Part shown: in pieces, positions 1 to 20,146 of the stretch
Position numbering within the stretch: position 1 is the first letter of the stretch
Layout of the letters: each line of letters starts with the position of its first letter
Assembly: GCF_000354175.2 (NCBI RefSeq)
Contig: NC_022359.1
Location: 1,680,001 to 1,712,000 of the forward strand
Direction: 5' to 3'
DNA from: Vibrio alginolyticus NBRC 15630 = ATCC 17749
GTDB lineage: Bacteria > Pseudomonadota > Gammaproteobacteria > Enterobacterales > Vibrionaceae
DNA: 32,000 bases
Program-made: the position numbers and the translations under genes
The notes under the pieces: model-generated
The model's input: the letters and a program-made list of their open reading frames with translations, nothing else
Database searches by the model: none
Told to the model about the DNA's origin: nothing

Positions 1-2712
1 GTCAGAACAGAATCTTCATCAATGGTGTAAGAAGTTGGTCCTGCGACTGGTGGATCGTTCACTTCCATTACTGTAATGCCGGCAGTGGTGACATCCGTTG
101 CGCCTTCTTCATCAGCGACGACAACATCAAGCGTCACTTCACCATTAAAGTTTTCATTTGGAGAGAAGGTGTACGTACCGTCACCATTGATTTGCAACAC
201 ACCATCGCTGCCAGAGTAGCTCACGCTATCAATCGAGACATCCCCTTCTAAATCCGAAGAGTTTGCCAACAGTTGCGCGTCAGAAATGGTAATAGAGTTA
301 TCTTCGTGAACCGTGTAAGACGTTGAACCAGCCACCGGAGGATCATTCACCGGCGTAACGCTCACATCTACATTCGCTGAAACTGTATCTGTGCCATCAG
401 ATACGTCGAAGCTGAAGTTCACATCGCCATTGAAGTTCTCATTTGGCGCAAAGCTATATGTGCCATCTCCATTGTCAGTTAGAACGCCGTCGGTGCCTTC
501 ATAGCTGATTCCCGTTACAGAAAGGTCATCGCCTTCAATGTCGGTAGCACCTGCAAGCAGATCTGCATCAGTAAATTGAAGAGTGCCGTCCTCTTCCACA
601 CTGAATTGTTGATCTTGAGGAACAGGCAGATCGTTGATTGGATTAACGGTTAGGTCAGCGGTTGCTTGAACGGTATTCGTGCCATCTGAGATATCGAAGC
701 TGATATCGATATCACCATTGAAATCTGCGTCCGGCGTGATGGTGAAGCTACCATCGTCGTTTTGAGTCACCGTCGCGTTGCCATCTACCGAAAGATTAGA
801 TGCCGTCAGTGCATCGCCTTCCACATCGGAAGCTTGCGACAACAACTGTTCTTGGCTCAAACGAATCGAGCCATCTTCATCCACTGAGTAAGCAAGATTG
901 CCAGATACTGGCGCATCATCAACTGGCGTAACGTTAACATCAATGTTAGCAGAAACCGTATCCGTACCGTCGGACACATCAAAGCTGAAGTTCACATCAC
1001 CATTGAAGTTTTCATTTGGCGCAAAAGTGTAAGTCCCATTACCGTTGTCGGTCAGGATGCCATCGCCACCGTCGTAGCTCACACCTTCAACGGTGAGGTT
1101 ATCGCCTTCAATATCAGTAGCACCAGTAAGCAGGTCAGCGTCCGTAAAGATCAGCGTGCCATCTTCTTCCACGCTGAACTGCTGGTCTTGAGGAACCGGC
1201 AAATCGTTTATTGGGTTAACGGTTAGATCAGCGGTTGCTTGAACGGTGTTCGTGCCATCGGAAATATCGAAGCTGATGTCGATATCACCGTTGAAATCTG
1301 CGTCCGGCGTGATGGTGAAGCTACCATCGTCATTTTTGAGTCACCGTCGCATTGCCATCTACCGAAAGGTTAGACGCCGTCAGTGCATCGCCTTCCACAT
1401 CGGAAGCTTGCGACAACAACTGCTCTTGGCTCAAACGAATCGAGCCATCTTCATCCACCGAGTAAGCAAGATTGCCAGATACTGGTGCGTCATCGACTGG
1501 CGTAACACTAACATCAATGTTGGCAGAAACCGTATCTGTACCGTCGGACACATCAAAGCTGAAGTTCACATCGCCATTGAAGTTTTCATTTGGCGCGAAA
1601 GTGTAAGTCCCATTACCGTTATCGGTCAGGATGCCGTCGCCACCATCGTAACTTACACCTTCAACTGTGAGGTTATCGCCTTCAATATCCGTTGCGCCAG
1701 CAAGCAGGTCAGCATCGGTGAAGGTCAGCGTACCATCCTCTTCAATCTCAAAGGTTTTATCTTCAGGCACTGGTGCGTCATTGATTGGACGAACAGTTAA
1801 ATCAATCGAGCTAGAAATGGTTTCTTGACCATCACTGATATCAAACGTTAAGTCGAGTTCACCATTAAAATCTGTATCAGGTGTGACGGTATAAGTGCCA
1901 TCACCATTATCCACAACGGATGCATTAGCACCCACTTGCACGTTGAATGCGGCAAGATCATCGCCATCAACATCACTCGCGTACCCGAGAAGTTGTTCTT
2001 GAGTGAAGGTAATAGTGCCATCTTCATCCATGATGTATGCCAGATCTTGCCCTACTTCTGGCGCGTCATTTTCACCTTCGACTTTAATTTGGAACGTTTC
2101 GCTCGTAGTTTCGGAGTCGAAATCGTCTTCTACTTGCGTCGTGGTTTCTTCGCTGGTGTCTTGTACATCCACCGCGAAGCTCTCTTCAGTGGTTTCTGAA
2201 TCTAGCTCGTCACCACCTTGAGAACCTTCAGAGTCTGAAGAAGCACTTGGCGCAGATGAAGTTTGTACCGCTTGTCCTTGCGCTTCATTGCCTTCTGCGT
2301 CCGAACCACCTTCAGAGCCAGAGGCATCACCACCACCGACCGCTTGGGCACCCGCCCCAGAATCCGAACCACCGCTGCCCAGAGCCTGGTCACCTGATTC
2401 TCCGCTAGAAGCTACACTATCAACAACATTGGATTGTGCAGCGTCAGAGTCGCTGCTACTTTCAGTATCCTCTTCTTGAACTGCGCCACCCGAGCTCACT
2501 GCTTCTTCTTCCGTACCCGCGCCACTAGGATTTTCTCCCATCGCACGATTGGCTTCATCAACAGCATCTGCACTTTCAGCACCGGTCGCTACAGTCGAAG
2601 AGACGGTCGACTGCTGTTTTTCTTCTTTTGTCCCCGTATCCTTCGTTTCTGTTTGCTCTACCGCATCGTTAAGCTTTTCATTGTCTTTTTCTTGATTAGT
2701 GTCGCCTGCCAT
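1..2712 (-). CDS. Giant repeat adhesin, presumed T1SS substrate (5' part only; runs off the window). The frame is interrupted by a +1 frameshift at the T5 run 1333-1337.
   Basis: The minus-strand ORF 1330..2712 (460 aa) starts at an ATG at 2712 preceded by GGAGG and has no signal peptide. About 200 aa of acidic S/G/D/E/T-rich N-terminus is followed by ~95-aa modules (NDAPV..EDG..L..A.D.EGD..FNG..D.SDG). My hand translation of the minus strand from 1334 downward, in the neighbouring frame, continues the same module: NDDGSFTITPDADFNGDIDISFDISDGTNTVQATADLTVNPINDLPVPQDQQFSVEEDG... It stays open in the stretch I translated (1334 down to about 1141). The intact paralogous copy at ~755-780 reads GNATVTQNDDG, whereas this copy reads GNATVTQK-stop. 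Confidence 0.85.
330..1760. repeat. Tandem direct DNA repeat with a 573-bp period (two ~95-aa protein modules per unit), about 2.5 copies, inside the adhesin gene.
   Basis: GAGGAACAGGCAGATCG at 617 recurs as GAGGAACCGGCAAATCG at 1190, an offset of 573. Blocks ~617-1170 and ~1190-1743 align with only scattered substitutions by eye. The 330-617 copy is more diverged. Confidence 0.8.
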
Positions 2713-2897: not shown

Positions 2898-3263
2898 ATG
2901 ATAAATATGACAAATCTGTTGCGCTCAGTCGACAACAGCCATAAAGGGCTGCAATTGCTATTAGGCGATTTTTACCAAGATTTCAGTGATGCAGGGATTG
3001 ATATTGAGATGCTGCATAAACAAAACCGTTTTGAAGCACTCAGATGTTATTCAAAAAGACTAAAGACCATTCTCGTCTTGTTATGTGATGACGACTTACC
3101 ACCAAAATTGGCAAAGCTTGAACACTTAAACAAACACCATTTCCCTGCTCCTAATGAATTGATCGAGGACGTTAAAACCGAGCTTAACAACGTAAACAAA
3201 CAAATTAGCCAGCTGTTAAAAATCGAAAATTCAATCGATAGCCGCACAGGTAGTGAATCATAG
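2898..3263 (+). CDS. Small hypothetical protein (121 aa), first gene of the T1SS operon. Predicted helical and soluble.
   Basis: The ORF lies after the AT-rich divergent promoter region. Its stop is 9 nt before the HlyD-like start, with GGGGTGG between them. I recognise no family. The true start could be ATG 2898 or 2907. Confidence 0.5.
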   Translation: MINMTNLLRSVDNSHKGLQLLLGDFYQDFSDAGIDIEMLHKQNRFEALRCYSKRLKTILVLLCDDDLPPKLAKLEHLNKHHFPAPNELIEDVKTELNNVNKQISQLLKIENSIDSRTGSES

Positions 3264-3272
3264 GGGTGGCTC

Positions 3273-4622
3273 ATGAGTAATAAGCAAATAGAACATCACC
3301 TCAAAAAGGCGCTTGTTTCGAACAACGAAGCTTCGAAGGTAACAGCAGACGATACAATCGTGCTAGCAAGTGCAATGACCAGCGTACACAAAACCTTGCT
3401 GGTTATCTTTTTGCTTTCCATGGTGGCTATCGCCGTGGCATCTCAGGCTCGTATCGACATTGTGGTGTCGGTGCGCGGTGAGCTATTGCTCGAATCTGAC
3501 ATCGAAAAAGTGCAACACCTTGAAGGCGGTATTCTAGAAGAAATGCTAGTGCGCAAAGGCGAAGTGGTTTATGAAGGTCAACCTATTGCACGCCTTCGCT
3601 CTCTGGATAGAAACACTCAACTTGATACGGTAAACACAGAGATCATTCAGCTTGAGCTAGACAAGATTCGTTACGAAAGCCTGCGCGATATGGTGGAACC
3701 CGATTTTTCTTCCTACATCGAAAAGTACCCAGAATTAGTGCAAGTCAACATGAATACCTGGCAGCAAGAATTTTCTAAAAACCGTTCCAATGAAGAGTTG
3801 ATCACTCACGATATCCAACATAAGAATTCGCTTATTGATTCAATGCTCAAGCGCCGTAAAAGCTCCGAGAACCAGCTCTCCTTGATACGCAAGCAGCTCA
3901 ATATTAAGAACACCTTGTACAAAGAGGAAATGGCGTCTTACGTCGATGTTCTGAATATGCAGGTTCAAGAGTCAAACATGGTGCGTGAGATAGAAAACCT
4001 TGATGAGTCGGTCATGAATGAGCGCTTCCAACTCGACAAACTAGAGAAGCAGTACCGAGACTTGGTGGAGAATCGTAATGCCGAGTATCAAGCACAAATC
4101 ATTCAAGCAAACAAGGACTTAAAGTTGAAACGTATATTACGTCCTCAACACTCAGATAAAGTGGATCGCCTCGTGGTTTACGCCCCTATTGACGGTGTAG
4201 TAGATAAAGTGCACTTCAACTTCCGCTCCGCTGTGATACCGCCAGGTGAAAGCATCGCGGACATTGCACCGATCAATAACGCCCTTCACGGAGAGGCGAA
4301 GATCCCGCGTAAAGACATGGGTTTTGTAGAAATCGGACAAGCGGTCAAAGTGAAGATGGATACCTACAACTTTGCCAAATACGGATTTTTGGAAGGTCGA
4401 ATTGCATCGATCAGCCGTTCTTCTTATGAAGAAGAAGACGCTGAATTCTACCTCGCGGAAATCCAAATCAGTCAAAACTATCTAGAGCGCGGAGGCACAC
4501 AATACAAGCTGTCCCCTTATATGGAGTTTACCGCAGACGTGAAAACAGGTTCACGCCGGGTGATCGAATACGCAGCGAAGCCGGTTATGTCGGCTATCGA
4601 AGACGCATTCGATGAGAGGTGA
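3273..4622 (+). CDS. HlyD-family T1SS membrane fusion (periplasmic adaptor) protein.
   Basis: 449 aa with a short cytoplasmic N-terminus and one TM segment (LLVIFLLSMVAIAVA). It then has the lipoyl-like motif (VQHLEGGILEEMLVRKGEVVYEGQPIARL), a long coiled-coil middle region, and a C-terminal beta-barrel-like region ending in a second hydrophobic-rich segment. This layout is typical of HlyD/LapC. Confidence 0.85.
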   Translation: MSNKQIEHHLKKALVSNNEASKVTADDTIVLASAMTSVHKTLLVIFLLSMVAIAVASQARIDIVVSVRGELLLESDIEKVQHLEGGILEEMLVRKGEVVYEGQPIARLRSLDRNTQLDTVNTEIIQLELDKIRYESLRDMVEPDFSSYIEKYPELVQVNMNTWQQEFSKNRSNEELITHDIQHKNSLIDSMLKRRKSSENQLSLIRKQLNIKNTLYKEEMASYVDVLNMQVQESNMVREIENLDESVMNERFQLDKLEKQYRDLVENRNAEYQAQIIQANKDLKLKRILRPQHSDKVDRLVVYAPIDGVVDKVHFNFRSAVIPPGESIADIAPINNALHGEAKIPRKDMGFVEIGQAVKVKMDTYNFAKYGFLEGRIASISRSSYEEEDAEFYLAEIQISQNYLERGGTQYKLSPYMEFTADVKTGSRRVIEYAAKPVMSAIEDAFDER

Positions 4623-4625
4623 TGG

Positions 4626-6857
4626 ATGAGTAGCAAACCTTCTTACAATATTTCCGTTCCTGTTATGCGCCTAAGCATCGCTTTCAGCTTGATGCTGGCT
4701 GCCCTCGCCTTTTATTTGTATATCTCTTGGGAAAAAGTGGATTCAGTCGAGAAAGTGCAAAACGCGCCTCTTTTGGTTCAAGCTCAACAGCTCAACCAAA
4801 CTATCGAGTTTGATATTCAAACGCTTCAACGCTGTTTAAGCGCACGTTATTGCAGTACAACAGAGCTTGATTTTGAGGTTCTGAAAGACGAAATTGACCA
4901 ATTTAAGTCGCTCGCGTCACTCAACAAAACCGAGTTTAGCTTGGTGGGCGCGACCGAATACACGCAGCTTGAACTGGCAATCAATCGGTTCTCAGACAGC
5001 CAAAAAACACGCGACGATGTGTTGGCACTGTACCTCTCGCTCACCAATAACTACCTACAAATGGACGACAACTACAGGACCATATTTAACAACCATGCGA
5101 GCGACCTAATGATGGAGAAAAACGAGTTCTTCATTTGGTTGTTTGTGGTCGTTGTCGTACTGGTTGGTATCGCAGTGCTATCGAACTTGGTGGCAATCCT
5201 TAAACTGAAAAAATCCAGCTCGAATGAGCGTGACATTGATCAAGAATTCGACGGGCTTTATCAAGAACTCAAACAACTGGATTTACAGAGGTTGGAAGAG
5301 TTGCTCAATGAAGTGAGCATCAATCCGAAGCAGCGTCAGATCTACTCTCACCTAAAACTGATTTTCAGCAAACTCGAAGAGCAAAAACGTAATAACGATC
5401 TCTACAAGCAGCTCTATGCTCTGATTGGTTACGAGATTCGTGGCATCACCAACACTATTAACGGCGGCGTGCAATATCTCGTTCAAGAGACCGATGAGAG
5501 CGGCGTGTTGATGGCGCAAGATATAACCTCGGCTGCCAATACCCTGTCTGAATTGGCAGAGAACTATAACCGACTCATTTCACAAGGGACCGAGAGCAAA
5601 TCGAAAGAGTTTTCACTGCTTAATGTGCTGTCTGAATTGATGATTCACATCAGTTCAAAAGTGCAGCGAAATGAAGGTGAGCTAGACTGCTTTATCTCGG
5701 ATAACTTACCAAACCGTGTTGAAGGGCAATCCACCAGCTTATTCTGGGTGTTGTTCCTACAGCTATCGAATGCCATCCAACTCAAAGCCGACAAAAAACT
5801 GTTTGTCACCATTGAATCGGGCGCAGCGTCAGACATTGAAAACACTCGCCTGACCATCAATCTAAACTTCTTAACCACACTGGATGTGCCGTTTGCCAAG
5901 CTCAATACACTACACTGGAGCGACCATAAACAGCACACCGCAACCAAAGACGATTTGGCGAAAAGCGTACTGAAAGATTACGGCTATTACGAGAGCCATT
6001 GGTATCAATCGGGCAATCAGGAACGTTTTCAAATTCAGCTCGATTTGAAAGCCAAAAGCTTCCACACCGAGAAAACTCGCTTCGATAATAAGCGCCTATT
6101 ACTGTGTGCCAACTCTCAGCTGCGCATTGATGTGATGAACAAAATGTTAGTCAACTTGGGCTTAGAGATTACGCCAATTCGCACACCAAACGAGCTCTTC
6201 TCTGCGGCAAAAACCTTTGGCGAATACGATGCCATCATGCTGACTGACACGTTCGAGCCAAACAAGCTGCCCTCACTGAGCAAAACGGTGAAATCGCAAC
6301 TGCGCAATCACCCAAATACTAAATTGCTGCTTTCAGTCACTAGCACTCAGCAAGCACAAGAGAGCCATACCTTTGTCGACAAGATTCTGAACTCTCCTGC
6401 GATTCCGTATGAGTTCATCCCTAACCTATTGGCAATCATGGAAGCGGAAGCCTCTGAAGATCAGATGGAGAACAGCTCATTCCTGATTGTTGAGGATGAC
6501 CGTGTTCAACAGATTCTACTCAAACGTATTTTGAGCAAGCAAGAATACGAAGCCGACACCGTTGGCGATGGCGCAGACGCTGTTCAGCACTTCATGAACC
6601 AGCGCTCGGATATCATTTTTATGGACTGCATCATGCCGGGTATGGGCGGCATTGAAGCAACCAAACGCATTCGACAATACGAACAAGAGAGCGGACAAAA
6701 CCCTTGCACCATCATAGGTGCGACAGCATTGACCAGCAGTAATGAACACCAAGCTTGTATCGAAGCTGGAATGGATTACGTGATCAGCAAACCTTATAAA
6801 AACGACGAAATCATCAAGGTGATCAACAAGTATGTGGCGGTACAGAAACTTAACTAG
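4626..6857 (+). CDS. Membrane sensor with hybrid histidine-kinase-like architecture: degenerate DHp (Tyr replaces the phospho-His), degenerate CA domain, pseudo-receiver, and an intact C-terminal receiver (REC).
   Basis: Two TM segments (aa ~15-33 and ~167-190) flank a ~130-aa periplasmic region. The H-box-like segment LYALIGYEIRGITNTING compares with the consensus FLAxMSHEIRTPLNxI, with Tyr269 encoded at nt 5430-5432. An N-box-like LQLSNAIQL is present, but I find no DxGxG / GxGxG boxes. The terminal REC has EDD, FMDCIMPGMGG (Asp at nt 6624-6626), ATALT and SKPY. Confidence 0.75.
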   Translation: MSSKPSYNISVPVMRLSIAFSLMLAALAFYLYISWEKVDSVEKVQNAPLLVQAQQLNQTIEFDIQTLQRCLSARYCSTTELDFEVLKDEIDQFKSLASLNKTEFSLVGATEYTQLELAINRFSDSQKTRDDVLALYLSLTNNYLQMDDNYRTIFNNHASDLMMEKNEFFIWLFVVVVVLVGIAVLSNLVAILKLKKSSSNERDIDQEFDGLYQELKQLDLQRLEELLNEVSINPKQRQIYSHLKLIFSKLEEQKRNNDLYKQLYALIGYEIRGITNTINGGVQYLVQETDESGVLMAQDITSAANTLSELAENYNRLISQGTESKSKEFSLLNVLSELMIHISSKVQRNEGELDCFISDNLPNRVEGQSTSLFWVLFLQLSNAIQLKADKKLFVTIESGAASDIENTRLTINLNFLTTLDVPFAKLNTLHWSDHKQHTATKDDLAKSVLKDYGYYESHWYQSGNQERFQIQLDLKAKSFHTEKTRFDNKRLLLCANSQLRIDVMNKMLVNLGLEITPIRTPNELFSAAKTFGEYDAIMLTDTFEPNKLPSLSKTVKSQLRNHPNTKLLLSVTSTQQAQESHTFVDKILNSPAIPYEFIPNLLAIMEAEASEDQMENSSFLIVEDDRVQQILLKRILSKQEYEADTVGDGADAVQHFMNQRSDIIFMDCIMPGMGGIEATKRIRQYEQESGQNPCTIIGATALTSSNEHQACIEAGMDYVISKPYKNDEIIKVINKYVAVQKLN

Positions 6858-8256
6858 CTGCGTATTGGCAGCGCTTACATTGAGCAATGCTCCTTCAGCA
6901 ATGGCGACCACCTTGCTTGAGGCGGTCAAACTCGGCTTGGAAAACAATTTATCTCTGCGCGCTAGTGACAAAGGCGTGGAAGAAAACGAATACAACATCG
7001 ACATTAGCCGTTCTAAGTTCCTGCCCTCTTTAAACGGTGCCGCTGATACCACATGGAATGAAAACGAGACCATATTAACGGGAACACCGGATACGCGTTC
7101 TAGCTACAACTCAAACAGCTACAGCGTGTCTTTATCTCAATCGGTGTTTAACCTTGGCGACATCTTCAAATACGGCACCGCGAAGCTTGATTTCAACATT
7201 GAAGAAATCAAACACGAGAACAAAATCCAGAGCACCATTTCTGAAATCGCGACTCAATATTTCGAGTACCTGAAAAACAACGCGCAAATCAAAGCCACCA
7301 AAGTCGAGCTTAAATCTTCTGAAACGCGTGAACGCCAAATGCGTCGCAACGTGGAGCTTGGTAACACTGCGGCGAGCGAGTTGTATGAGGTGATTGCTCA
7401 GAAAGAAGGCATTGCCAATCGCTTAAGAACCTTAGAGAAAGACCGACGTGTGATTTTGAACGGTTTAGAGATTCAAGTTCAATACCCGGTCACCCCATCG
7501 CAGGACATCTACGAAAGCGTGCCCTTGGCGGAAATCAGCGAATCCGAACAACGCGCGATTCTTGAACAAGCTTTGAAGCTCAATAACGACTTATTGGTTG
7601 CGAAGAAGACCGTAGAACGAAGCCGAAGAGGCTTGAAAGAAAGCGGTTCAAACTTTGTGCCGACCGTGTCGCTCTCTGCCAGTTACCGTTACGACGATGC
7701 GAACAACTATGACCGAACCGACCCAACCGCAACAGGGGACAGTAACTCCACCAGCGTCGGTTTGAACTTGAATGTGCCGATTTTCTCCGGCGGTTCGGAT
7801 TATTACGGTTATCAAAAATCTTCAACTGCTATCGAGCGAACCGAGCTACTTTACCAAGATTCGTTGTTCACTACGCGCAATAGCGTTAACACCTCGGTAC
7901 TCAACATTAATGACTTCTCCCGCGCTATTAGCAGTTACGAGAACATCATTCGTGCAAACTACGCTTCCTACAAAGGCATTCAACGCGCTTACCAGCTTGG
8001 CACGCGAACCATTACCGACTTACTGGCAGCGGAGAGTAAACTGTTTAGCGCGCTACGTGATTACGAGAGCGCGCGTTATGACTACATCATTGAATCAATC
8101 AATCTTGAGCAAATCAAAGGCATGCTGTCGGTGCAGTCCATCGAAAGCATCATGCAATTGATGAGCGATATCGAAGGCAGAAGCAATCAAGACTTAGTTC
8201 CAAAACACCTTCTCTCCAAACCATCGATTAAGAAAGGAGGTCGCAATGCAAACTGA
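6832..8256 (+). CDS. TolC-family outer membrane factor dedicated to the T1SS.
   Basis: The signal peptide is MWRYRNLTSCVLAALTLSNAPSAMA|TT. The mature N-terminus LLEAVKLGLENNLSLRA... and the two-repeat TolC-like layout fit the family. The start overlaps the preceding gene by 26 nt. Confidence 0.85.
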   Translation: MWRYRNLTSCVLAALTLSNAPSAMATTLLEAVKLGLENNLSLRASDKGVEENEYNIDISRSKFLPSLNGAADTTWNENETILTGTPDTRSSYNSNSYSVSLSQSVFNLGDIFKYGTAKLDFNIEEIKHENKIQSTISEIATQYFEYLKNNAQIKATKVELKSSETRERQMRRNVELGNTAASELYEVIAQKEGIANRLRTLEKDRRVILNGLEIQVQYPVTPSQDIYESVPLAEISESEQRAILEQALKLNNDLLVAKKTVERSRRGLKESGSNFVPTVSLSASYRYDDANNYDRTDPTATGDSNSTSVGLNLNVPIFSGGSDYYGYQKSSTAIERTELLYQDSLFTTRNSVNTSVLNINDFSRAISSYENIIRANYASYKGIQRAYQLGTRTITDLLAAESKLFSALRDYESARYDYIIESINLEQIKGMLSVQSIESIMQLMSDIEGRSNQDLVPKHLLSKPSIKKGGRNAN

Positions 8257-9832
8257 GCATTTTTCCCAAAGGATTAACTTTGCTGACAAGTGTTACCTGA
8301 CTTTCTCAACGATCATCTCGACGCTGTTTGGTTTAGTACTGCCCTTTTCGATTCTGATTATCTTTGACCGAGTTTTACCTAACCAAGCCAAAGACACGCT
8401 GTTTCTTCTGTTTGCCATTATCTTGATCACCATCTTCCTCGACTATCACTTAAAGAATCAGGAAGAGAAGATTTCGTCGGTGATCATGAAGCAGTTCGAA
8501 ACCAACCTAACCAACAAGGTGTTTCAATCCATCTGTTTGGCTGAGATATCGAAGTTTCGTCGCCTAGAACCCGGTGAATACCTAGAACGTATTGCCACCA
8601 TTCCAGAGATTAAATCCTTCTTTGGCGGAGAATCTGTTCGGGCATTGATCAACCTTGCCATCAGCATACTGACCATTCTGATTATCGGTCTGATCAACAT
8701 TTGGGCGGGAGTGACCATCTTGCTCGCCTCCATAGTTTTAGCGGTGTTCGCACTCAGTCTTTCCAAGCAAAAAATCAACAGCCTAGAAAACAAATCCGAC
8801 ATCGAAGGCTTAACCACTTCGAAAATCATCGAGATCATCTCTAGCCCACTCGATATCAAAGCACGCAATATGGAATATCGCGTCGAGAGCTTGATGACAC
8901 AAATGGTGGAAGAACGTGAAGTCGAGAACATCAAATACGAGCAAATCGAATCAAACTTCAACCTTATCTTGTCGCTCATACAACAGCTCTCCATCGCTTG
9001 TGTGGTGGTGGTTTTAGCAACGGCAGTTATCAACATGCAATCTAGCCAAGGCATCATGGCAGCCATCATCATGCTTACCAACCGCTACTTCGCCCCATAC
9101 CAGCAAGTGATGCGCACGGTGAGTCGCTGGGAGTTGAACAAGCTTCATATTCAACGAATCGCCGAGTTGCTTGAGCTTGCTGCGTCTGTAGAACAACAAA
9201 ATGACACGACAGAAGTCGAGCGCATCTCGGTGAAGTATTCGGAAAAACAACGCATCGAGTTCGAACGCGGTCAGGCTTACTTGCTAACGGGGAAAAGCGG
9301 CGCAGGCAAAACCCATCTTGCCAATTGCATTACACGGCAAAACACCGACAGCAAGCTCGATATCCAAATCAACGAGACACCGCTCGATGACGTCAATTAC
9401 AACGTCTGGCGTAATAGCGTGCTGATGGTCGACAAAACCAGCTCGTTCGTCGAAGGCACCATCATCGACAACTTGACTTGTTTCCGCCCAAGCTTAAATA
9501 ACACGGCATTTGCGCTTTGCGAAACCATGAACATCAAAGCACAAATCGATGCCCTTCCCGCTGGTTTTTACACCGAGCTTAAAGGGCATTTACGCAACCC
9601 ATTCTCGCGCCAAGTCGCTTATGCCTTGTTGTTGGTGCGTGCCTTACTCGCAAACAAACGTGTGTTGATCTTCGACGACATCGACTGTGTTTATGATGAC
9701 GACTTTGCTCGATTGGTTTTGACCAGTACTGCTTATCGCGCCAACGACAAAATACTCATCATCGTCAGCAATAAGATGGACAAACTCAATCATCGCCTCA
9801 AACGCGTCAAACTTACCGGAGGTGACCAATGA
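8246..9832 (+). CDS. T1SS ABC half-transporter A (528 aa). It has no N-terminal accessory domain, and its nucleotide-binding domain carries degenerate catalytic motifs.
   Basis: The RBS is AAAGGAGG. The TMD has ...LPFSILIIFDRVLP.... Walker A GKSGAGKT (9290-9313) is present. The Walker B region reads VLIFDDID (9662-9685), with Asp where the catalytic Glu normally follows. The signature position reads NPFSRQ instead of LSGGQ (from 9596). The H-loop position reads IIVSNK, with no His. Confidence 0.8.
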   Translation: MQTEHFSQRINFADKCYLTFSTIISTLFGLVLPFSILIIFDRVLPNQAKDTLFLLFAIILITIFLDYHLKNQEEKISSVIMKQFETNLTNKVFQSICLAEISKFRRLEPGEYLERIATIPEIKSFFGGESVRALINLAISILTILIIGLINIWAGVTILLASIVLAVFALSLSKQKINSLENKSDIEGLTTSKIIEIISSPLDIKARNMEYRVESLMTQMVEEREVENIKYEQIESNFNLILSLIQQLSIACVVVVLATAVINMQSSQGIMAAIIMLTNRYFAPYQQVMRTVSRWELNKLHIQRIAELLELAASVEQQNDTTEVERISVKYSEKQRIEFERGQAYLLTGKSGAGKTHLANCITRQNTDSKLDIQINETPLDDVNYNVWRNSVLMVDKTSSFVEGTIIDNLTCFRPSLNNTAFALCETMNIKAQIDALPAGFYTELKGHLRNPFSRQVAYALLLVRALLANKRVLIFDDIDCVYDDDFARLVLTSTAYRANDKILIIVSNKMDKLNHRLKRVKLTGGDQ

Positions 9833-11967
9833 GTATTTTGGTTGATTTTAATAATGTCCCTCAGCGCTTGTTGGACTTTGAGGCTCGCAGTTATGACGAG
9901 CGATACAATGAGTCACCTTTGATTCGTGGTTTAGCTTACACCCTCATAGCGCTTGAATGGGAAGGCACACCTTCTATCCTCAGCGACGCTTTTATCCCTA
10001 AACCAAAAGACAGCGACAGTTTTATCGCTACGATTGAACGCCTTGGTTACCGTTGTGACGTCACCAAACTAAAAACGTTGGAGCACATCGAGGGGCACCC
10101 TCATCCTTGTTTTATCGAGATAGAAAACCTCACTGCGATTTTCTTGGGCACCAAAGACGGCAAGCTGATCCTGTTTGATTACACCAATAACAACACCATT
10201 GAATACCCGCTCTGCAAAAAGCCATGCTTGTTGGTCTCTATCAGCGAATACTCGCGCTTGTTCCGAGAGCCACCACCTGAATCTCAAGACCGCAGTAACT
10301 GGATTAAATACGCGTTTTATCGCTACAACAATGAACTCAAGAGCCTGATTATCCTCAGCTTCGTGGTCAGTATTCTCGGCGCACTCCAGCCCTTTTTTAT
10401 TATGAGTGTGTACAACTTCGCCTTAACCTCTAGCTCGCAAGCCACGCTTTATTGGCTCACGTTATTTGCTGTGATTGTTGGGTTCTCGGAATACTTTTTC
10501 AAGAAAATGCGGGTCAACATCATCGCCACATCAGGGAAGGATTTGGCGGTGCATATTTCTCAAAACGTAATATCCAAACTGTTGTGGCTTCCTTATTCGA
10601 TGACATCTACCGCTGGTGTCTCTTCTCAGTTAGCACGTTTGAAAGACATCGACACTTTCCGCCGTTTGGTAACCGCAGAGTCAACATTAAGCTACTTCGA
10701 CATGCCGTTTGTTATCGTATTCATTATTGCCATTGCTCTTATGTCTGGTACCGCAGCGCTAGTCGTTATGGCGGGGTTGATTCTAATGTTGGTGTTCTGT
10801 GTTTATTCTCGTTACATCTACTCGCAAGCCACGTCCAAGAGCTCTCGCGCCAACGCCATGGTTTCTTACCAATGGAATGAGATTCTTCGTGGTATAAAAA
10901 CCATCCAAGGCTTGCCATTGTTGCGTGTTATCCAGTCCCGCTTTAGCGCATCGCATTTACAAAGCACCAACGATGCAGAACATGTTTCAGTGACTAATAG
11001 CAGGGTTCAGGCAGCAGGCGGAAGTTTGATTCAGGTTATTGGTACCGCAAGTATCGTGACTGCGGTTATCGGCGTAATGGATGGCACATCTGATGCCGGT
11101 GCCATGCTTGCAACCGTAATTCTAGTCTGGAAGGCGTTAGGTCCGATAATGGGTATCTACAACTCCATTTCCAAATTCCAATCCATTAAGGCGTCCTCTG
11201 CGCAAATCAACAACCTTATGGCGATGAATGATGACAAGCTAACGTTGGAGAAAAGCCCCCCTATTCGCCTCTTCCAAGGCAGCATTGTCGGCAGCGGTGT
11301 AAGCCATCGCTACACTGGCGCAGCAACGGGCTTAACCAATCTCGGATTTAAAATTGCCCCAGGGGCGAAGGTGGTGATTTGTGGACCGACTGGTTGCGGC
11401 AAAACCACGCTAATTTCCATCCTTGCGGGTTTAGAAGATAGATACCAAGGCGCAGTGTCGGTAGACGGTTACAACATCAAACAGTTCAACAGCTATCGCT
11501 ACCGAACCTCGATTAACTACATCCCGTTTAATTTGCATATTTTTGAAGGCTCCTTGGAGACTAACTTCATCTTGCATAATGGATTAATCCCAACAGAAAA
11601 AATGCGTGAAATGGTGAGTTTCTTTGAGCTCGATACATGGTTACCACAAGGCCTGGACACTCAATTGAGCGTTGATATCTGTAAAAGTTTACCAAATGGT
11701 ATTCAACAAAGACTGCGGCTCGCATTAGGGCTAGGCAACTGCGAACAATCTTTGATTATCATTGACGAGCCATTTAATGGTGCAGAGCAAGAAAACTCCC
11801 ACTATTTCAAGCGGTTATTTAGCGACAAACTACTCAATAAGACCGTTATTTTCTCAACGAATGATCCGGGCATGATCTCTACATCCAATATGAGCTTAGT
11901 CTTGGAGCCAGATGGCAACCTGAAATATTTCGGGTTAACCGATAAGTACTTAAAAAGTCTAAGTTAA
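9829..11967 (+). CDS. T1SS ABC half-transporter B (712 aa) with an N-terminal Cys-less C39-like domain.
   Basis: An ATGA overlap joins it to the upstream gene. The ~150-aa N-terminal domain has the C39-like pattern but no catalytic Cys context. Walker A is GPTGCGKT (11383-11406), the signature variant is LPNGIQQ (11689-11709), and Walker B is LIIIDEP (11752-11772). Confidence 0.85.
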   Translation: MSILVDFNNVPQRLLDFEARSYDERYNESPLIRGLAYTLIALEWEGTPSILSDAFIPKPKDSDSFIATIERLGYRCDVTKLKTLEHIEGHPHPCFIEIENLTAIFLGTKDGKLILFDYTNNNTIEYPLCKKPCLLVSISEYSRLFREPPPESQDRSNWIKYAFYRYNNELKSLIILSFVVSILGALQPFFIMSVYNFALTSSSQATLYWLTLFAVIVGFSEYFFKKMRVNIIATSGKDLAVHISQNVISKLLWLPYSMTSTAGVSSQLARLKDIDTFRRLVTAESTLSYFDMPFVIVFIIAIALMSGTAALVVMAGLILMLVFCVYSRYIYSQATSKSSRANAMVSYQWNEILRGIKTIQGLPLLRVIQSRFSASHLQSTNDAEHVSVTNSRVQAAGGSLIQVIGTASIVTAVIGVMDGTSDAGAMLATVILVWKALGPIMGIYNSISKFQSIKASSAQINNLMAMNDDKLTLEKSPPIRLFQGSIVGSGVSHRYTGAATGLTNLGFKIAPGAKVVICGPTGCGKTTLISILAGLEDRYQGAVSVDGYNIKQFNSYRYRTSINYIPFNLHIFEGSLETNFILHNGLIPTEKMREMVSFFELDTWLPQGLDTQLSVDICKSLPNGIQQRLRLALGLGNCEQSLIIIDEPFNGAEQENSHYFKRLFSDKLLNKTVIFSTNDPGMISTSNMSLVLEPDGNLKYFGLTDKYLKSLS

Positions 11968-12072
11968 GTTCGGAATGTGGTGTGGTTCATCATTCATACT
12001 TGAGCACGGTCATTGACAAAAATGTAAACGATGAGACTATTTACTCTGTAAGCGCGTACACTAAGGAATCCG

Positions 12073-12447
12073 ATGTATACATTTGTTGCAGACAAATTGG
12101 ATGTGGTTTATTTATCAACAATACCAGAAAACTACCAGTTACAAGACTTCGATGTGCCTGAAGAAGAACTCGAAATTCGTGAAATTGTAGAGGTATGGTA
12201 TGAGTGTGCGTTTCTTCCTGACTTTAACCTTCAACACATCGACATCGAAAACAAAACCTCATTAGTCGAGACACAAGCGCAAGTCGTAAACAACTACACA
12301 AGTACGCTCGCTTTTTTACTCAAAAGTCGTGCTTATCGCGCAGCACTTAACCGATTATTGAGTGTATGGAGATTGGAGGCAGCAGCTAAAGCACAGCTTG
12401 AGCTGCTGTTACTTACGGAAGAACAGAGTAGCAAGCCAGTAAATTAA
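12073..12447 (+). CDS. Hypothetical protein (124 aa), acidic N-terminal half and helical C-terminal half.
   Basis: The ATG has a good RBS (TAAGGAATCCG-ATG), and a TTGACA hexamer lies ~55 nt upstream. I recognise no family. It is convergent with the sigma-factor gene. Confidence 0.45.
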   Translation: MYTFVADKLDVVYLSTIPENYQLQDFDVPEEELEIREIVEVWYECAFLPDFNLQHIDIENKTSLVETQAQVVNNYTSTLAFLLKSRAYRAALNRLLSVWRLEAAAKAQLELLLLTEEQSSKPVN

Positions 12448-12473
12448 TCGGCTAGGATAAGGGGCTAAAAATC

Positions 12474-13364
12474 TTAAACCCAACCATCGAATCGGAGACG
12501 TTTCTGCACGCGTTCAACCGCCTCTATCTGCATCTGACGAACACGCTCGTTAGACACGTTTAACAACAGGCCTATTTCCGACAAGGTTTTCACTCTCTGG
12601 TCAAATAATCCGAATCGATGGATCAAGACTTTTTGCAACTTAGTTGGCAAGGTTTTAATAATATTTTCAATAGCTTGAGTAAAGCACTGATTTTCACAGT
12701 CTTGTTGTGGATCTGGCGTATACTCACTTTCACACAGTTCAAGAACAAATGGAACGCGATGTAGGTCCGCAGTGGTCGATACATCAATAAAGCCACTAAG
12801 CGCAACAAGTTCATCTATACGCTCTGCTTTCACCCCTGAGCAGCGTGAGAGTTCAGAAATAGACAACTCCTTGCTCTCACTTTTTGACGCATCGAGCTTT
12901 TTTAAAGCCAGGCTATTTATCTCTTTGCACACATGAGCAGGTAAACGTACCGTGCGGCCATTGTTCATTAATGCCGCTTCTATATTCTCGCGAATCCACC
13001 ATACCGCATAAGTAGAAAAACGGTAGCCTGGCTCAGGATCGAACTTATCGACCGCTTTTATCAAACCAATATTACCTTCTTCTATTAAATCGAGCAGAGT
13101 AAAGTTATTGCCTGGCCGTTTGAGGTAGCCTTTTGCGATTTTCACAACAAGTCGAAGATTAGACTCAATCAACATTTCGCGCGCTTCTTCATCACCAGCT
13201 CGATTAAGTTTGGCGTAATGCAACTCCTCTTCACGAGACAACAAATCAATCCCCACAATATCTTTGAGATAGTGAGCATAAGGGTCTTTCCCAACTGACA
13301 ACGATTCTTTCATTGACAGTTCATCCGTGACAGCTCGGAACCTAGCAAAGCATTCGTTGTTCAT
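12474..13364 (-). CDS. RpoS-like sigma-70 family sigma factor, probably a paralog rather than the housekeeping-context rpoS.
   Basis: 296 aa. It carries [58 protein letters not shown] and RTVRLPAHV, with region 4 [26 protein letters not shown]. This is close to E. coli RpoS regions 1.2-4 as I remember them. There is no nlpD neighbour. RpoS-like paralogs have been described in Vibrio (I recall the name rpoX in V. alginolyticus). Confidence 0.8.
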
Positions 13365-13697
13365 TCCCCGTCCTTCTCAAGCCAACTTATTTCTTATCTT
13401 CTTTAATTGTTTTTGTACAACACTGTATGCATCATGCTTTATATGCATTACTTTACACTGAGTGTAGACAGGGGTTCTGATCTTTACCAAGAAATCACTT
13501 ATCACTTTAAAACAATTACTGCTTCTATGATAAAAACGTGAGCAGGCGGGGGGTTATATATATGAAAGTGATAGTATTTGTACGCAAATTGGCCTCAAAG
13601 AAAACAACGCAACGTGATCGTCAACGCTTACCACGTTACTCTGACTAAAACTTTGAGGCTTGAGGATGGCTTGAAGCATCAGTTGAATTAGCGAGAT

Positions 13698-15140
13698 CTA
13701 ATTCACTTGACGAAGCGCAGGTTGAAGCTGACAGTCTGTTATAACTTGGAAAACTGCACGATTCTTTCCTTCAGACTTACCTTGATACATCAACTCGTCA
13801 GCATCTTGCAAGCTCACGATGTGGGTAAACTCAGGATAGTAAGCACAGCCCAAACTGATACTCAAATGAATTGCTTGTCCACCCAGTATAACAGGCTGAT
13901 CGTAAACGGCTTTACAAAGCATATTGGCAAAATTGAGCGCTTCTCGCTCTGACAGAGACGACGTAACGAGTGCGAACTCTTCTCCTCCAATTCTCGCCAA
14001 TGTCATTCGGTCATCAGTCATCGACTTAGCGGCTTCTGCGATGGCAACTATTGCTCGGTCTCCAGCAAGGTGGCCATATCGATCATTGATTGATTTAAAA
14101 TCATCAATATCAAACACCATCACCGTTAAGTTTCGCTTCAAATGATTCAGTAGCGCCAATTGCTCAATCAGGTGTCTACGGTTGTATAGCTTTGTGAGAG
14201 AATCCGTCAACGTCATCTCCAGCAATTGCTGATTGGCAATCGTTAATTGCCTTGTCCGAAGAGCAACCATACGTTTGAGGGCAAAAATATGATAAAGCGT
14301 TGCAATCGCCATAATGAAAATAGCAATAGGGAAAAGATAAAGTGGATAAACCGTTTTCACCACACTCCAACGGGTGAGGATCCGCTCACGATCCGTATCG
14401 ATGACTTTTTCAAACGCTCTTGATACCTCTAAAATGGAAGTTGCACTGTGCATTCCTGCTGCAATCCGAAGATCTTTACTATATAAGCTAATTGTCGGGA
14501 CAAACATACCCGCTCCCGGCGTGGTTGCCATATAAAAGTTAGCAACTTGCAGGTCTGCAACAAAGTACAGCACCTTTTTATCGACGGCGGCTTGTATCAT
14601 CGAATCATTGTTAATGTATTCTGCGATAGGTGCATTCGGATAATTCGTCTGAACAAACTCAGACTCGTAACTTCCTTTAACAACGCCAATTGGCATCGTC
14701 ATTTCGCCAGTTAAAACACTCCTGATATCAACCGAAAGTACATCTTTATTTACGTACAATTTGGTTTGGATAGGCATTATGACGGCGCCAAAGTCCATAT
14801 ACTTCGCTCTTTCGGGCGAGTAGACAAGTCCTCCGTGAAAGTCAGCCTTACCCTCTTTTACGGCTTGCAAAGAAGCATCCCAATCCAAAAGGAGAAACTG
14901 AACGTCAATTTGGTTGTTCGCCGCGTACTCTTTCCAAAAGTCGATTAAAATACCTTTAGGTTCACCATCTGGGCTAAGGTAAGAGAACGGCTTCCACGCT
15001 TTGGAGTTAGCAACAATTAAAGAATGAGACTCTGATTTGTGCGCATGCGCCATCGGACAAATGGACAGCCACAGTAGTAATAAAGAAGCACACGCTTTTT
15101 TACATTTGCAACCATAAGTACCATAACTCGTCGATGACAT
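13698..15140 (-). CDS. Diguanylate cyclase: periplasmic solute-binding (SBP type 3-like) sensor domain, TM segment, coiled coil and GGDEF domain.
   Basis: An N-terminal signal/TM is followed by an SBP-like region (KPFSYLSPDGEPKGILIDFWKEYA...DWDASLQAVKEGKADF). The TM segment is VYPLYLFPIAIFIMAIATLYHIFAL. The GGDEF domain has the active-site motif RIGGEEF. No RxxD I-site occurs at the usual -5 position (the sequence there is DDRMTLARIGGEEF). Confidence 0.85.
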   Translation of the reverse strand: MSSTSYGTYGCKCKKACASLLLLWLSICPMAHAHKSESHSLIVANSKAWKPFSYLSPDGEPKGILIDFWKEYAANNQIDVQFLLLDWDASLQAVKEGKADFHGGLVYSPERAKYMDFGAVIMPIQTKLYVNKDVLSVDIRSVLTGEMTMPIGVVKGSYESEFVQTNYPNAPIAEYINNDSMIQAAVDKKVLYFVADLQVANFYMATTPGAGMFVPTISLYSKDLRIAAGMHSATSILEVSRAFEKVIDTDRERILTRWSVVKTVYPLYLFPIAIFIMAIATLYHIFALKRMVALRTRQLTIANQQLLEMTLTDSLTKLYNRRHLIEQLALLNHLKRNLTVMVFDIDDFKSINDRYGHLAGDRAIVAIAEAAKSMTDDRMTLARIGGEEFALVTSSLSEREALNFANMLCKAVYDQPVILGGQAIHLSISLGCAYYPEFTHIVSLQDADELMYQGKSEGKNRAVFQVITDCQLQPALRQVN

Positions 15141-15294
15141 ACCTACTTCTCACCAGTCTTTTTAAACCATAATCTCGGCTGTTTGATTAGACTAAAGATA
15201 TAGTAGAGTTGCATAAGACAGGAAGTGACGCTTATTGATATGAATCTAACTTAGTAAGTTTTAGTACTTAATTGGTACTTTCAACGCCTGGTTC

Positions 15295-15369
15295 GCTGAA
15301 GCAGTTGAAGCAGTTGAAGCAGTTGAAGCAGTTGAAGCAGTTGAAGCAGTTGAAGCAGTTGAAGCAGTA
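15295..15369. repeat. Perfect 9-bp tandem repeat (GCAGTTGAA) x7, plus partial copies at both ends.
   Basis: Copies fall at 15301, 15310, 15319, 15328, 15337, 15346 and 15355. They are flanked by GCTGAA and GCAGTA partial copies. The array is intergenic, between the arfA stop (15390) and the GGDEF gene start (15140). Confidence 0.95.
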
Positions 15370-15389
15370 CATGATAAATTAGGAATAAC

Positions 15390-15677
15390 TTATCTGGTAC
15401 TAAAAAATTGAATATCATCAGTTTTGCAAACACCTAGTACCAATAAAAAAGCCCTATTCAAAATCCACCTTGGGGAGAACTTTGAATAGGGCTCTTTGCC
15501 TCTATGCTTCATTTTACGGCTGAAGCTACCTTTACCTTTTTTCGCTTTAACGACTCGTGTTTGGAACAGCTGACTGGTAACAACCGCTTTTAACGCGTTG
15601 TCTTTGATTTCACCTCTGCCGAAGTCGGTCTCATGTTGTGAGCCACTCGGTTGAGGACTGATTTTACGCTTTGCCAT
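15390..15677 (-). CDS. arfA: Alternative ribosome-rescue factor ArfA (nominal full-length ORF; the functional product is expected to be C-terminally truncated).
   Basis: GEIKDNALKAVVTSQLFQTRVVKAKKGKGSFSRKMKHRGK matches E. coli ArfA ([37 protein letters not shown]) as I remember it. The RBS is strong (AAGGAGG, 5 nt before the ATG). Confidence 0.8.
   Translation of the reverse strand: MAKRKISPQPSGSQHETDFGRGEIKDNALKAVVTSQLFQTRVVKAKKGKGSFSRKMKHRGKEPYSKFSPRWILNRAFLLVLGVCKTDDIQFFSTR
15441..15492 (-). terminator. Intrinsic-terminator-like hairpin inside the arfA ORF.
   Basis: A 12-bp perfect stem pairs GCCCTATTCAAA (15451-15462) with TTTGAATAGGGC (15481-15492). On the minus-strand transcript it is followed by TTTTTT (15445-15450). 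Confidence 0.75.
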
Positions 15678-15861
15678 AAATCCTCCTTAATGGTCGAACC
15701 AGATTGGACAATAATTATATAAATAAGTCAAATTTATAGATTTAGTTGAATTTTATGCTAAAAAACTTCACATCACCGTCATTTATTTGAAATTTAATCA
15801 AAAACATGCTGGTTAAATAGTGACTAAATACAAATATTTGTCCATAAAGCACTAATATATG

Positions 15862-15889
15862 TTGACTCTTCGTGGAATTAACCTAGACT
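15862..15889 (+). promoter_or_regulatory. Candidate sigma-70 promoter for the csp gene (TTGACT-16 nt-TAGACT).
   Basis: The hexamers lie at 15862-15867 and 15884-15889. This would give a leader of ~145 nt, similar in size to known cspA leaders. It rests on the sequence pattern only. Confidence 0.3.
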
Positions 15890-16042
15890 CAAACACGGCT
15901 AGAAAGAAAGTTCTTTGTTTTCACATTTCGTTGGATTACTTGTAACCCGTCGTCCTGTGGTACGCAATAGCAATTTATTTTTCCACGCTATAAGCGCCGT
16001 TGAGGCGAAAGATTACATTATTTAGATATTTAGGAAATAGAC

Positions 16043-16252
16043 ATGTCTAACACAGCTACTGGCACAGTTAAGTGGTTCAACGAAACTAAAGGCTTCGGTT
16101 TCATTCAACAAGAAAACGGTCCTGACGTATTTGCTCACTTCTCTGCAATCACTGGTGACGGCTTCCGTACTCTAGTTGAAGGCCAGAAAGTAGAATTTGT
16201 TATCTCTCAAGGCCAAAAAGGCCCTCAAGCAGAGCAAATCAAAGTACTTTAA
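16043..16252 (+). CDS. CspA-family cold-shock protein (69 aa).
   Basis: [15 protein letters not shown] (RNP1) and DVFAHFS (RNP2) are present. The RBS is AGGAAA. Confidence 0.95.
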
Positions 16253-16272
16253 TTCTTAAAGAATTTGATACG

Positions 16273-16304
16273 ATAGCCAGCTTTTAAAGCTGGCTATTTT
16301 TTTG
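16273..16304 (+). terminator. Rho-independent terminator after csp.
   Basis: ATAGCCAGCTT..AAGCTGGCTAT is followed by TTTTTTT. Confidence 0.85.
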
Positions 16305-16341
16305 CCTAAAACTTATTTTGCCAACAAAACGATATAAATCT

Positions 16342-17416: not shown

Positions 17417-17527
17417 AATACATGGTTTTATCCATTTCAAACAACTGATAGACTTCACGCTCAGTGCAACAAGCATCATGATTGCATTCTTAAAGGACAA
17501 TTACCCAATGAACATCAAGGGATCATT

Positions 17528-17887: not shown

Positions 17888-17915
17888 GTTCCCCCTATGA
17901 ACATTGGCGGATGTA

Positions 17916-19620: not shown

Positions 19621-19633
19621 ACAAGGAGATTAC

Positions 19634-20107: not shown

Positions 20108-20146
20108 ATCTAGAAAGCTTTGTCTTAAAGCCAAAGTATCAAAACC

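Follow-up and report, generated by a model that had tools for sequence, protein, structure and literature searches.

A putative histidine pseudokinase with an intact receiver, encoded within a conserved type I secretion operon of Vibrio alginolyticus

This report concerns an open reading frame at positions 4626-6857 of a 32,000-nucleotide stretch of Vibrio alginolyticus NBRC 15630 (contig NC_022359.1, positions 1,680,001 to 1,712,000; the whole stretch is called the window below) and the secretion operon that holds it. The gene is the third of six, which encode in order an Hpt-like protein, an HlyD-family adaptor, the protein in question, a TolC-like channel and two ATP-binding cassette (ABC) transporters, here ABC1 and ABC2, and the operon stands beside a gene for a giant cadherin-repeat protein. 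An earlier description made from the letters of the DNA alone, referred to as the sequence-only reading, had called the protein a hybrid-kinase look-alike that lacks the phospho-accepting histidine and keeps an intact receiver. In public databases it is identical to V. alginolyticus entries named 'response regulator' or 'ATP-binding response regulator' (e.g. AGV20414.1), the second of which is an automatic label whose 'ATP-binding' is probably wrong, the G1 and G2 motifs being absent from the sequence. The DNA is about 99% identical to chromosome 2 of V. owensii and V. harveyi. The parts of the protein, drawn in part from an AlphaFold2 (AF2) model, are the following.

4626..6857, plus strand: histidine pseudokinase with C-terminal receiver, 743 amino acids.
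4662..5204, plus strand: first transmembrane segment (TM1, about residues 13-34), periplasmic helical domain (about 38-165) and second transmembrane segment (TM2, about 167-193), from hydropathy and AF2 helices.
5391..5591, plus strand: DHp-like helical hairpin, residues 256-322, with Tyr269 replacing the phospho-His, from the hhalign register and homolog conservation.
5601..6065, plus strand: CA-like alpha/beta domain, residues 326-480, with G1 and G2 absent and the N-box Asn variable, from hhalign and AF2 secondary structure.
6081..6449, plus strand: pseudo-receiver, residues 486-608, with D541 kept, from AF2 topology, full-length NCBIfam models and a fold match to ShkA Rec1.
6474..6845, plus strand: canonical receiver, residues 617-740, with D624, D625, D667 (nucleotides 6624-6626), T700 and K722, from Pfam Response_reg.

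A hydropathy scan places the two transmembrane segments on either side of a domain of about 130 residues, which must be periplasmic. The AF2 model, built from the family alignment as a monomer (mean predicted local distance difference test score, pLDDT, 78.6; predicted template modelling score, pTM, 0.45), has one long helix running from the periplasmic domain through TM2. Past TM2 come two helices (234-288 and 291-319) that form a DHp-like hairpin, then an alpha/beta domain at residues 326-480, and lastly two receiver folds. Within the periplasmic domain the cysteine pair C70-x5-C76 is kept in 39 of 42 non-redundant family members, and the loop K101..S105-L-V-G108 is similarly retained (K101 in 36, S105 in 37 and G108 in 38 of the 42; residues 70-112 correspond to window positions 4833-4961). 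The pair and the loop are probably a disulfide and a ligand- or partner-binding site. The Pfam model HEF_HK matched residues 112-152 weakly and under its cut-off.

The H-box-like stretch LYALIGYEIRGITNTING (residues 263-280) carries tyrosine, Y269 (TAC, nucleotides 5430-5432), at the histidine position, and an N-box-like SNAIQL occupies residues 381-386; the sequence-only reading had placed every motif, and the codons of Y269 and D667, correctly. Pfam found neither HisKA nor HATPase_c in the protein even at E<=10, Response_reg being the sole domain reported, and a sequence search of the PDB with the whole protein returned receivers only, mostly from hybrid kinases, with no match to the kinase region. 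Since Pfam does not report the two kinase domains, the kinase homology is shown by profile-profile alignment and fold comparison. Using hhalign to compare an alignment of 30 family members with one of 17 genuine hybrid kinases, we obtained a probability of 99.9% and an E-value of 1.2e-35 over 485 columns, a resemblance that chance cannot account for. In this register GYEIRGITN lies on SHEIRTPMN with Y269 in the phospho-His column, which bears out the idea of a kinase look-alike without its acceptor, and N382 of SNAIQL lies on the N-box asparagine, a position that is variable in the family. The ATP-lid boxes, which could not be found earlier, are indeed missing: G1 reads FLTT against DTGIGI, and G2 reads TKDDLAK in the window and sNDEWSK in the family consensus against GGTGLGL, neither DxGxG nor GxGxG being present. 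A real histidine at the acceptor position, or intact G1 and G2 boxes, had been named as the results that would overturn the idea, and the profile alignment showed neither.

Fold comparison points the same way, since a DHp hairpin and an alpha/beta CA fold are recognised by hhalign, by the AF2 secondary structure and by Foldseek matches to ShkA, ZraS and RetS. The top Foldseek match of the model in the PDB is full-length ShkA (6QRJ, E 1.3e-18, 494 columns), followed by ZraS, RetS, RcsC (2AYX) and GacS D1. Among full-length NCBIfam models, RcsC matches residues 263-739 (NF008099, 92.3 bits against a cut-off of 920), BarA residues 461-741 and LetS residues 480-737, all far under their cut-offs, and orthology to RcsC, BarA or LetS was rejected on scores about 10-fold under the equivalog cut-offs.

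No histidine in the DHp or CA region is conserved among the 42 members. H242, rightly named before as the nearest histidine and as lying outside the box, is present in only 4 of them and H341 in 23, and H242 or any other histidine was rejected as an alternative acceptor. Tyr269 was also rejected as a general phospho-acceptor, for Phe or Asn replaces it in orthologs, and because neither of these can be phosphorylated the tyrosine hydroxyl is no universal acceptor. The profile alignment, the fold match and the absence of the histidine throughout the family support the earlier suggestion that the protein cannot autophosphorylate, and for a protein that lacks both the acceptor histidine and the ATP-lid motifs we regard autophosphorylation as very unlikely.

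The state of the acceptor position was followed through 75 aligned homologs, taken from a scan of one genome per species. Tyrosine occurs in 65 of them, phenylalanine in 4 (Oleiphilaceae and a Pseudomonadales metagenome-assembled genome, MAG), asparagine in 1 (Colwellia) and histidine in 5. All 70 homologs linked to secretion genes are accounted for by Tyr, Phe and Asn; the 5 with histidine come from Marinobacter, have 24% identity, do not lie beside secretion genes and are genuine kinases with CHASE5, HisKA, HATPase_c and two receivers. Next to the acceptor position, E270 is present in 75 of 75 homologs and R272 in 73. A deeper search, using the kinase-like core only (residues 200-485) against 1.84 billion cluster representatives, gave 44 proteins at E<=1e-3, 31 of these at E<=1e-10. 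Among the retrieved matches, the 18 in the family range have Tyr (15) or Phe (3), and the 8 at E>=2e-4 are ordinary kinases with SHEIR or GHEMR together with DTGxGI and, in all but one truncated sequence, GTGLGL; no His-bearing intermediate between the family and ordinary kinases was found among them. These comparisons indicate that the pseudokinase state is ancestral and strongly selected, and that the family is small and sharply delimited.

Mean pairwise identity among the 42 non-redundant members is 0.59 in the true receiver, 0.58 in DHp helix 1 and 0.50 in DHp helix 2, and falls to 0.36 in the pseudo-receiver, 0.30 in the CA-like domain and 0.21 in the periplasmic domain. The 'dead' DHp surface is the most constrained part of the protein outside the receiver. 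Intact open reading frames of about 710-770 amino acids occur in several orders, and in comparison with V. owensii and V. jasicida the ratio of nonsynonymous to synonymous substitution rates (dN/dS) comes to 0.036-0.041. Because this ratio is so low and the DHp helices are conserved about as well as the receiver, we take the protein to be functional and no relic, and the loss of the catalytic motifs, as far as sequences can tell, is a family trait under selection and not a lesion.

Of the two receiver-like domains, the first had been described as lacking the acidic pair, and this holds: C494-A-N stands in its place within LLLCANS (residues 491-497). The lysine is missing too (S590-P591), and D541 is kept at the acceptor position in 39 of 42 members. 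With the beta-alpha topology of a receiver fold in the model, this middle domain is a pseudo-receiver. The terminal receiver, described before as complete, is matched by Response_reg (PF00072) over residues 620-733 with an E-value of 4e-24 and 85.3 bits against a cut-off of 30.2. It contains EDD at residues 623-625 and FMD at 665-667 (D667 is GAC, nucleotides 6624-6626), and D624, D625, D667, T700 and K722 are invariant or nearly so, with D667 in 74 of 74 and K722 in 73 of 73 sequences. In these residues the domain has all that phosphoryl chemistry requires, and by sequence it is fully phosphorylation-competent.

The remaining genes of the locus are as follows.

1..2712, minus strand: giant cadherin-repeat protein, encoded upstream of the operon and divergent from it, presumed type I secretion substrate or adhesin (Cadherin_4, Cadherin_5 and Big_9 in Pfam), running past the left edge of the window.
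2898..3263, plus strand: Hpt-like small protein, 121 amino acids, gene 1 of the operon, from the ortholog alignment and family profile.
3273..4622, plus strand: HlyD-family type I secretion periplasmic adaptor, 449 amino acids (TIGR01843, E 3.4e-88, above cut-off; HlyD_3).
6832..8256, plus strand: TolC-family outer-membrane channel, 474 amino acids (Pfam OEP, E 8e-59; TIGR01844, 2.4e-59).
8246..9832, plus strand: ABC exporter half-transporter 1, LssB-like, 528 amino acids, with a degenerate signature motif and Asp for the catalytic Glu.
9829..11967, plus strand: ABC exporter half-transporter 2, LssB/PrtD-like, 712 amino acids, with canonical Walker A and Walker B-Glu.

The type I secretion gene set is complete, with ABC_tran, ABC_membrane, HlyD_3 and OEP all present in Pfam; the LssB/PrtD and TolC models of NCBIfam match strongly, yet under their cut-offs. 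The successive junctions of the six genes are gaps of 9 and 3 nucleotides followed by overlaps of 26, 11 and 4, the overlap of 26 nucleotides being that of the pseudokinase 3' end with the TolC-like gene, and a search for internal promoter- or terminator-like sites in the operon found no excess over shuffled sequence. The same gene order beside a cadherin-repeat giant recurs in about 70 loci while the genes outside it vary, so that the embedding in an adhesin secretion operon, part of the earlier description, is real and conserved. These loci come from Vibrio, Aliivibrio, Photobacterium, Thaumasiovibrio, Shewanella, Psychromonas, Colwellia, Oleiphilaceae, Paraferrimonas, Aliagarivorans and a Micavibrio MAG. 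The distribution indicates that the link between the pseudokinase and the type I secretion system is ancient; the pseudokinase is inherited together with the secretion genes and, as the overlapping frames suggest, is probably also translated together with them.

One rearranged variant was seen in a Psychromonas MAG, where the ABC genes stand between two tandem pairs of HlyD and pseudokinase genes (at about 7950/9356 and 16614/18029 within 7950-20350 of that locus), with no TolC-like gene found between the pairs. A step in synonymous divergence (dS) was also observed: against V. owensii and V. jasicida it is 0.7-1.5 for the Hpt-like and HlyD genes and 0.16-0.26 for the pseudokinase, TolC and ABC1 genes. 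This step between 2898-4622 and 4626-9832 points to recombination with a breakpoint within the operon.

The first gene of the operon, which the sequence-only reading did not mention, encodes an Hpt homolog. The window protein by itself has no Pfam match, and the Photobacterium and Shewanella orthologs match Pfam Hpt (PF01627) with E-values of 1.8e-8 and 5.7e-7. A family profile of 23 sequences matches the solved Hpt domains of PA1611 (3e-5), RcsD/YojN (4e-4) and LuxU (7e-3), and its HsLkg falls on their phospho-His motif. At that position the window protein has Lys53 (nucleotides 3054-3056), reading SKRLKT instead of HSLKG and thus lacking the histidine of HxxKG. Lysine is found in the window and in 18 further loci (Harveyi and Splendidus clades and Vibrio sp. 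WXL210), tyrosine in 3 loci of the V. comitans / V. ishigakensis group, and the canonical histidine, H[ST]L[KS]G, which most genera have, in 33 of the locus entries; 18 loci, among them those of the V. mediterranei clade and A. fischeri, gave no Hpt open reading frame, and V. hippocampi has only a short remnant. The dN/dS of the Hpt-like gene is 0.053-0.060, so the copy without histidine is itself under purifying selection. In V. alginolyticus the histidines are gone from both the 'kinase' and the 'Hpt' and the receiver aspartate is intact, and the comparison of lineages indicates that in the ancestral module a live Hpt accompanied a pseudokinase whose receiver was live. This makes a natural series of relay dismantling, in which the Hpt histidine is present, replaced by Lys or Tyr, or missing according to lineage, while the receiver aspartate is constant.

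A genuine hybrid kinase of about 1,000-1,070 amino acids adjoins ABC2 downstream in Splendidus-clade Vibrio, Aliivibrio fischeri and Thaumasiovibrio. In the three loci scanned (L006:18042-21248, L017:17491-20643 and L054:17261-20284) these kinases have HisKA, HATPase_c and two receivers and no Hpt, and they are candidate phosphodonors or partners of the pseudokinase.

Our preferred interpretation, to which we give a probability of roughly 0.55, is that the protein is a pseudokinase of DivL/ShkA-like type whose D667 receives phosphate in trans, and through which secretion of the adhesin is tied to a phosphorelay and to a periplasmic signal. It would descend from a CHASE5-type hybrid kinase with the order TM, periplasmic sensor, TM, DHp, CA, receiver (REC), REC, and would have become a dedicated signalling subunit of the adhesin secretion operon. 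In the ancestral route phosphate would pass from another hybrid kinase to the stand-alone Hpt of the operon and on to D667, and on balance we lean towards phosphorylation of D667 in trans. The sequence-only reading had suggested a phospho-acceptor; the His-bearing Hpt orthologs back this for the ancestral state, and the Lys53 of the window Hpt does not allow it to be carried over as it stands. In V. alginolyticus phosphate might be supplied by another Hpt such as LuxU, by another kinase or by acetyl phosphate. The DHp-like hairpin around Y269 would do no chemistry; it would be a surface on which a receiver docks and by which the state of that receiver is read. The receiver would be the REC of the protein itself, resting on the DHp bundle as it does in ShkA, and the DHp would sense its phosphorylated form in the manner of DivL; by analogy with these proteins, the face formed by Y269, E270 and R272 has about an even chance of being such a surface. 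The continuous helix from TM2 to the DHp would couple receiver phosphorylation with the conformation of the periplasmic domain. The most speculative step is the output, protein-protein control of the secretion or display of the cadherin-repeat adhesin, and that the output concerns this neighbouring adhesin at all is put forward tentatively, the odds being somewhat against it.

The comparison with DivL of Caulobacter crescentus rests on a kinase fold with Tyr (here Tyr/Phe) at the phospho-His position and, here, on a DHp that is the most conserved non-receiver region. The protein has the features of the DivL-type class of pseudokinases, namely a kinase fold with a non-phosphorylatable residue or Tyr at the histidine position, under selection. 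DivL has PAS domains and neither a receiver nor a periplasmic sensor, and is not a hybrid. It also differs in keeping a recognisable ATP-binding domain with weak nucleotide binding and in controlling the cell cycle, not secretion. Close kinship with DivL is not indicated, and the shared tyrosine is probably convergent. DivL has Tyr for His and no kinase or phosphatase activity, its DHp face senses DivK~P, and the Y550F variant still binds DivK~P specifically (PMC4211667).

ShkA, the top fold match, has the same cytoplasmic order of DHp, CA, pseudo-receiver and receiver, and both pseudo-receivers keep their Asp without the acidic pair. When ShkA is closed, its REC2 lies against the DHp bundle, from which release is gated by the pseudo-receiver (10.1101/675454). 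Unlike the protein here, ShkA is soluble and active as a kinase, with His23 and AMPPNP bound; it is activated when cyclic di-GMP (c-di-GMP) binds Rec1, the binding residues being R324, Y338, R344 and S347, and it has a DDR linker (10.1101/675454), whereas the pseudokinase described here is membrane-anchored, with a periplasmic domain, no acceptor histidine and no ATP lid.

A bolder version of the proposal, which we consider decidedly doubtful, makes the protein an inside-out receptor driven by phosphorylation, matching LapD in function but made from a dead hybrid kinase, in which phosphorylation of D667 by a cytoplasmic relay alters receiver docking on the Tyr269 face and the change is relayed via TM2 to the conserved, disulfide-bearing periplasmic domain. 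By binding or letting go of the secretion machine or of the conserved N-terminal motifs of the adhesin, that domain would decide on secretion, surface retention or release, and the His-less Hpt of the Harveyi and Splendidus clades would be a non-transferring modulator that binds the receiver. The sequence-only reading had drawn a parallel with LapD. As a concept it stands, for LapD/LapG likewise tie a degenerate transmembrane signalling protein to a giant type I secreted adhesin; as kinship it does not, and membership of the LapD family was rejected because Pfam finds no HAMP, GGDEF or EAL domain in the pseudokinase. The conserved cluster also has no LapG-like protease, and the presumed cytoplasmic input here is phosphorylation, not c-di-GMP. 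LapD shows that adhesin retention can be governed by inside-out signalling (PMC6890996).

For the modified Hpt the likeness is to AHP6 of Arabidopsis, in that an Hpt fold without its histidine has been retained (here with Lys53 and a dN/dS of about 0.05). AHP6 is a pseudo-Hpt without the phospho-His that acts as a competitive inhibitor of a phosphorelay. Being from a plant, it is kin to the Hpt here only through the fold family.

Several points weigh against our interpretation. Because the Hpt of the V. alginolyticus clade has no histidine (K53), trans-phosphorylation by the cognate Hpt cannot operate here. Membership of the operon speaks for co-inheritance and probably co-expression, and not for a mechanistic role in secretion. 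The AF2 model, a monomer with a pTM of 0.45, is uninformative on docking of the receiver on the DHp. The N-box residue N382 is N in 62 of the 75 homologs (S, D, E, R or K in the others), and its retention in so many may leave residual nucleotide binding possible. Finally, neither a literature search, with most subscription journals outside its reach, nor a review of RTX proteins gave any description of the kinase-like gene of the operon.

The first of these points leads to another explanation, in which the relay is silent in the V. alginolyticus clade and the protein is a phosphorylation-independent scaffold whose receiver is a fixed interaction module that helps the secretion machine to assemble or to remain stable. 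The replacement of the Hpt histidine by Lys (18 loci and the window) or Tyr (3), and the 18 loci in which no Hpt frame was detected, fit this explanation, as does the purifying selection on both the pseudokinase and the Hpt-like gene, which is expected of structural subunits. However, D624, D625, D667, T700 and K722 are invariant or nearly so even in lineages without a functional Hpt, which would be difficult to account for if no phosphoryl chemistry took place, whereas pseudo-receivers normally lose their phosphorylation residues, as the middle domain of this very protein has done. We consider a scaffold of this kind unlikely.

The protein might also be a phosphate sink or a cross-regulator, draining or buffering phosphoryl groups of another phosphorelay with its receiver, or inhibiting a genuine kinase through a DHp heterodimer as RetS inhibits GacS, and so regulating gene expression and not the machine itself, in which case the operon position would merely secure co-expression. 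RetS of Pseudomonas aeruginosa is a similar case of a hybrid-kinase-like sensor that acts by contacts with the DHp of another kinase and not by autophosphorylation, and the structures 6DK7, 6DK8 and 7N0E of its kinase region are among the fold matches. RetS retains its His and CA domain, and it has a different periplasmic domain, tandem receivers and no location in a secretion operon. PA1611, GacS and RcsC/RcsD have receivers or Hpt domains similar to those found here, and the Rcs system is close in further respects, with the RcsC model spanning residues 263-739, the fold match to 2AYX (RcsC linker plus receiver) and the match of the Hpt profile to RcsD (YojN, 1SR2). RcsD is a kinase-like membrane protein without a catalytic histidine. 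In Rcs, though, the His-less RcsD bears the Hpt and the active RcsC bears the receiver, whereas here the His-less protein bears the receiver and the Hpt is separate. The genuine hybrid kinase found directly downstream of ABC2 in the three groups named above would suit a cross-regulator, but it is absent from the window and from most genera, and the strict position of the gene between HlyD and TolC across orders, together with the overlapping frames, suggests stoichiometric co-production with the machine. A sink or cross-regulator is in our view improbable, a shade more so than the scaffold.

That the protein is a cryptic kinase, with Tyr269 itself as the phospho-acceptor or with a CA-like domain that binds ATP non-canonically, is scarcely credible. 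Tyr is present in 65 of the 70 secretion-linked homologs, Glu270 is invariant, most members have the N-box Asn and a public name, though automatic, reads 'ATP-binding'. Against this, orthologs in the same operon have Phe (4 loci, and 3 further cluster representatives) or Asn (1) where Tyr is expected, so that the hydroxyl is dispensable, G1 and G2 are absent, and the CA-like domain is among the less conserved parts (0.30). A tyrosine-kinase idea was once held for DivL as well and was later set aside, no kinase or phosphatase activity being found (PMC4211667). The notion of an evolutionary relic, a decaying hybrid kinase gene with no function left save perhaps that of the receiver, would explain the loss of all catalytic kinase motifs and is effectively refuted by intact reading frames across orders, a dN/dS of about 0.04, a DHp as conserved as the receiver and the retention of the periplasmic Cys pair and loop.

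If our preferred reading of a trans-phosphorylated pseudokinase is true, a phosphorelay-linked subunit would be a second, undescribed control route for adhesin secretion. The known accessory regulators of type I secreted adhesins work by c-di-GMP and proteolysis (LapD/LapG), and a pseudokinase conserved under selection within this operon suggests an undescribed link between phosphorelay signalling and secretion. To our knowledge histidine pseudokinases are a rare class with few characterised members, namely DivL and, more recently, PsmA and a variant of ChrS. Pseudokinases as such are already known; what is new is a pseudokinase family that is embedded in a secretion operon, bears a receiver and is partnered with an Hpt. 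Its hosts, among them V. alginolyticus, V. harveyi, V. splendidus, A. fischeri, Photobacterium and Shewanella, are of ecological and economic importance.

Some minor observations concern the neighbouring genes. Downstream of the operon lie a sigma-70-family gene (12474-13364, minus strand; regions 1.2, 2 and 4) and a gene for a diguanylate cyclase with a periplasmic solute-binding domain (SBP_bac_3 and GGDEF; 13698-15140, minus strand). Both were considered as parts of the system, but this has no support, as the genes past ABC2 differ among genera. The frame of the adhesin gene is broken near 1330-1345, where two frames abut at 1333/1340 with a stop after ...NATVTQK. Within a 500-nucleotide stretch that contains an A5 run the window has one base more than V. 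owensii, V. harveyi and V. jasicida, and the break may reflect a genuine frameshift, phase variation or an error of sequencing; the adhesin orthologs are single open reading frames of 2068 to more than 6400 amino acids. The N-terminus of the adhesin (2100-2712, minus strand) is acidic and of low complexity, has no retention module of the LapA type that could be recognised, and contains the short motifs LNDAVEQ, NQQxTxxxTxATGAE and GAQxVGG, conserved across orders. ABC1 has the signature motif NPFSRQ and VLIFDD, with Asp for the catalytic Glu after Walker B, and ABC2 has LIIIDE, an asymmetry that suggests a heterodimer with one degenerate ATP site.

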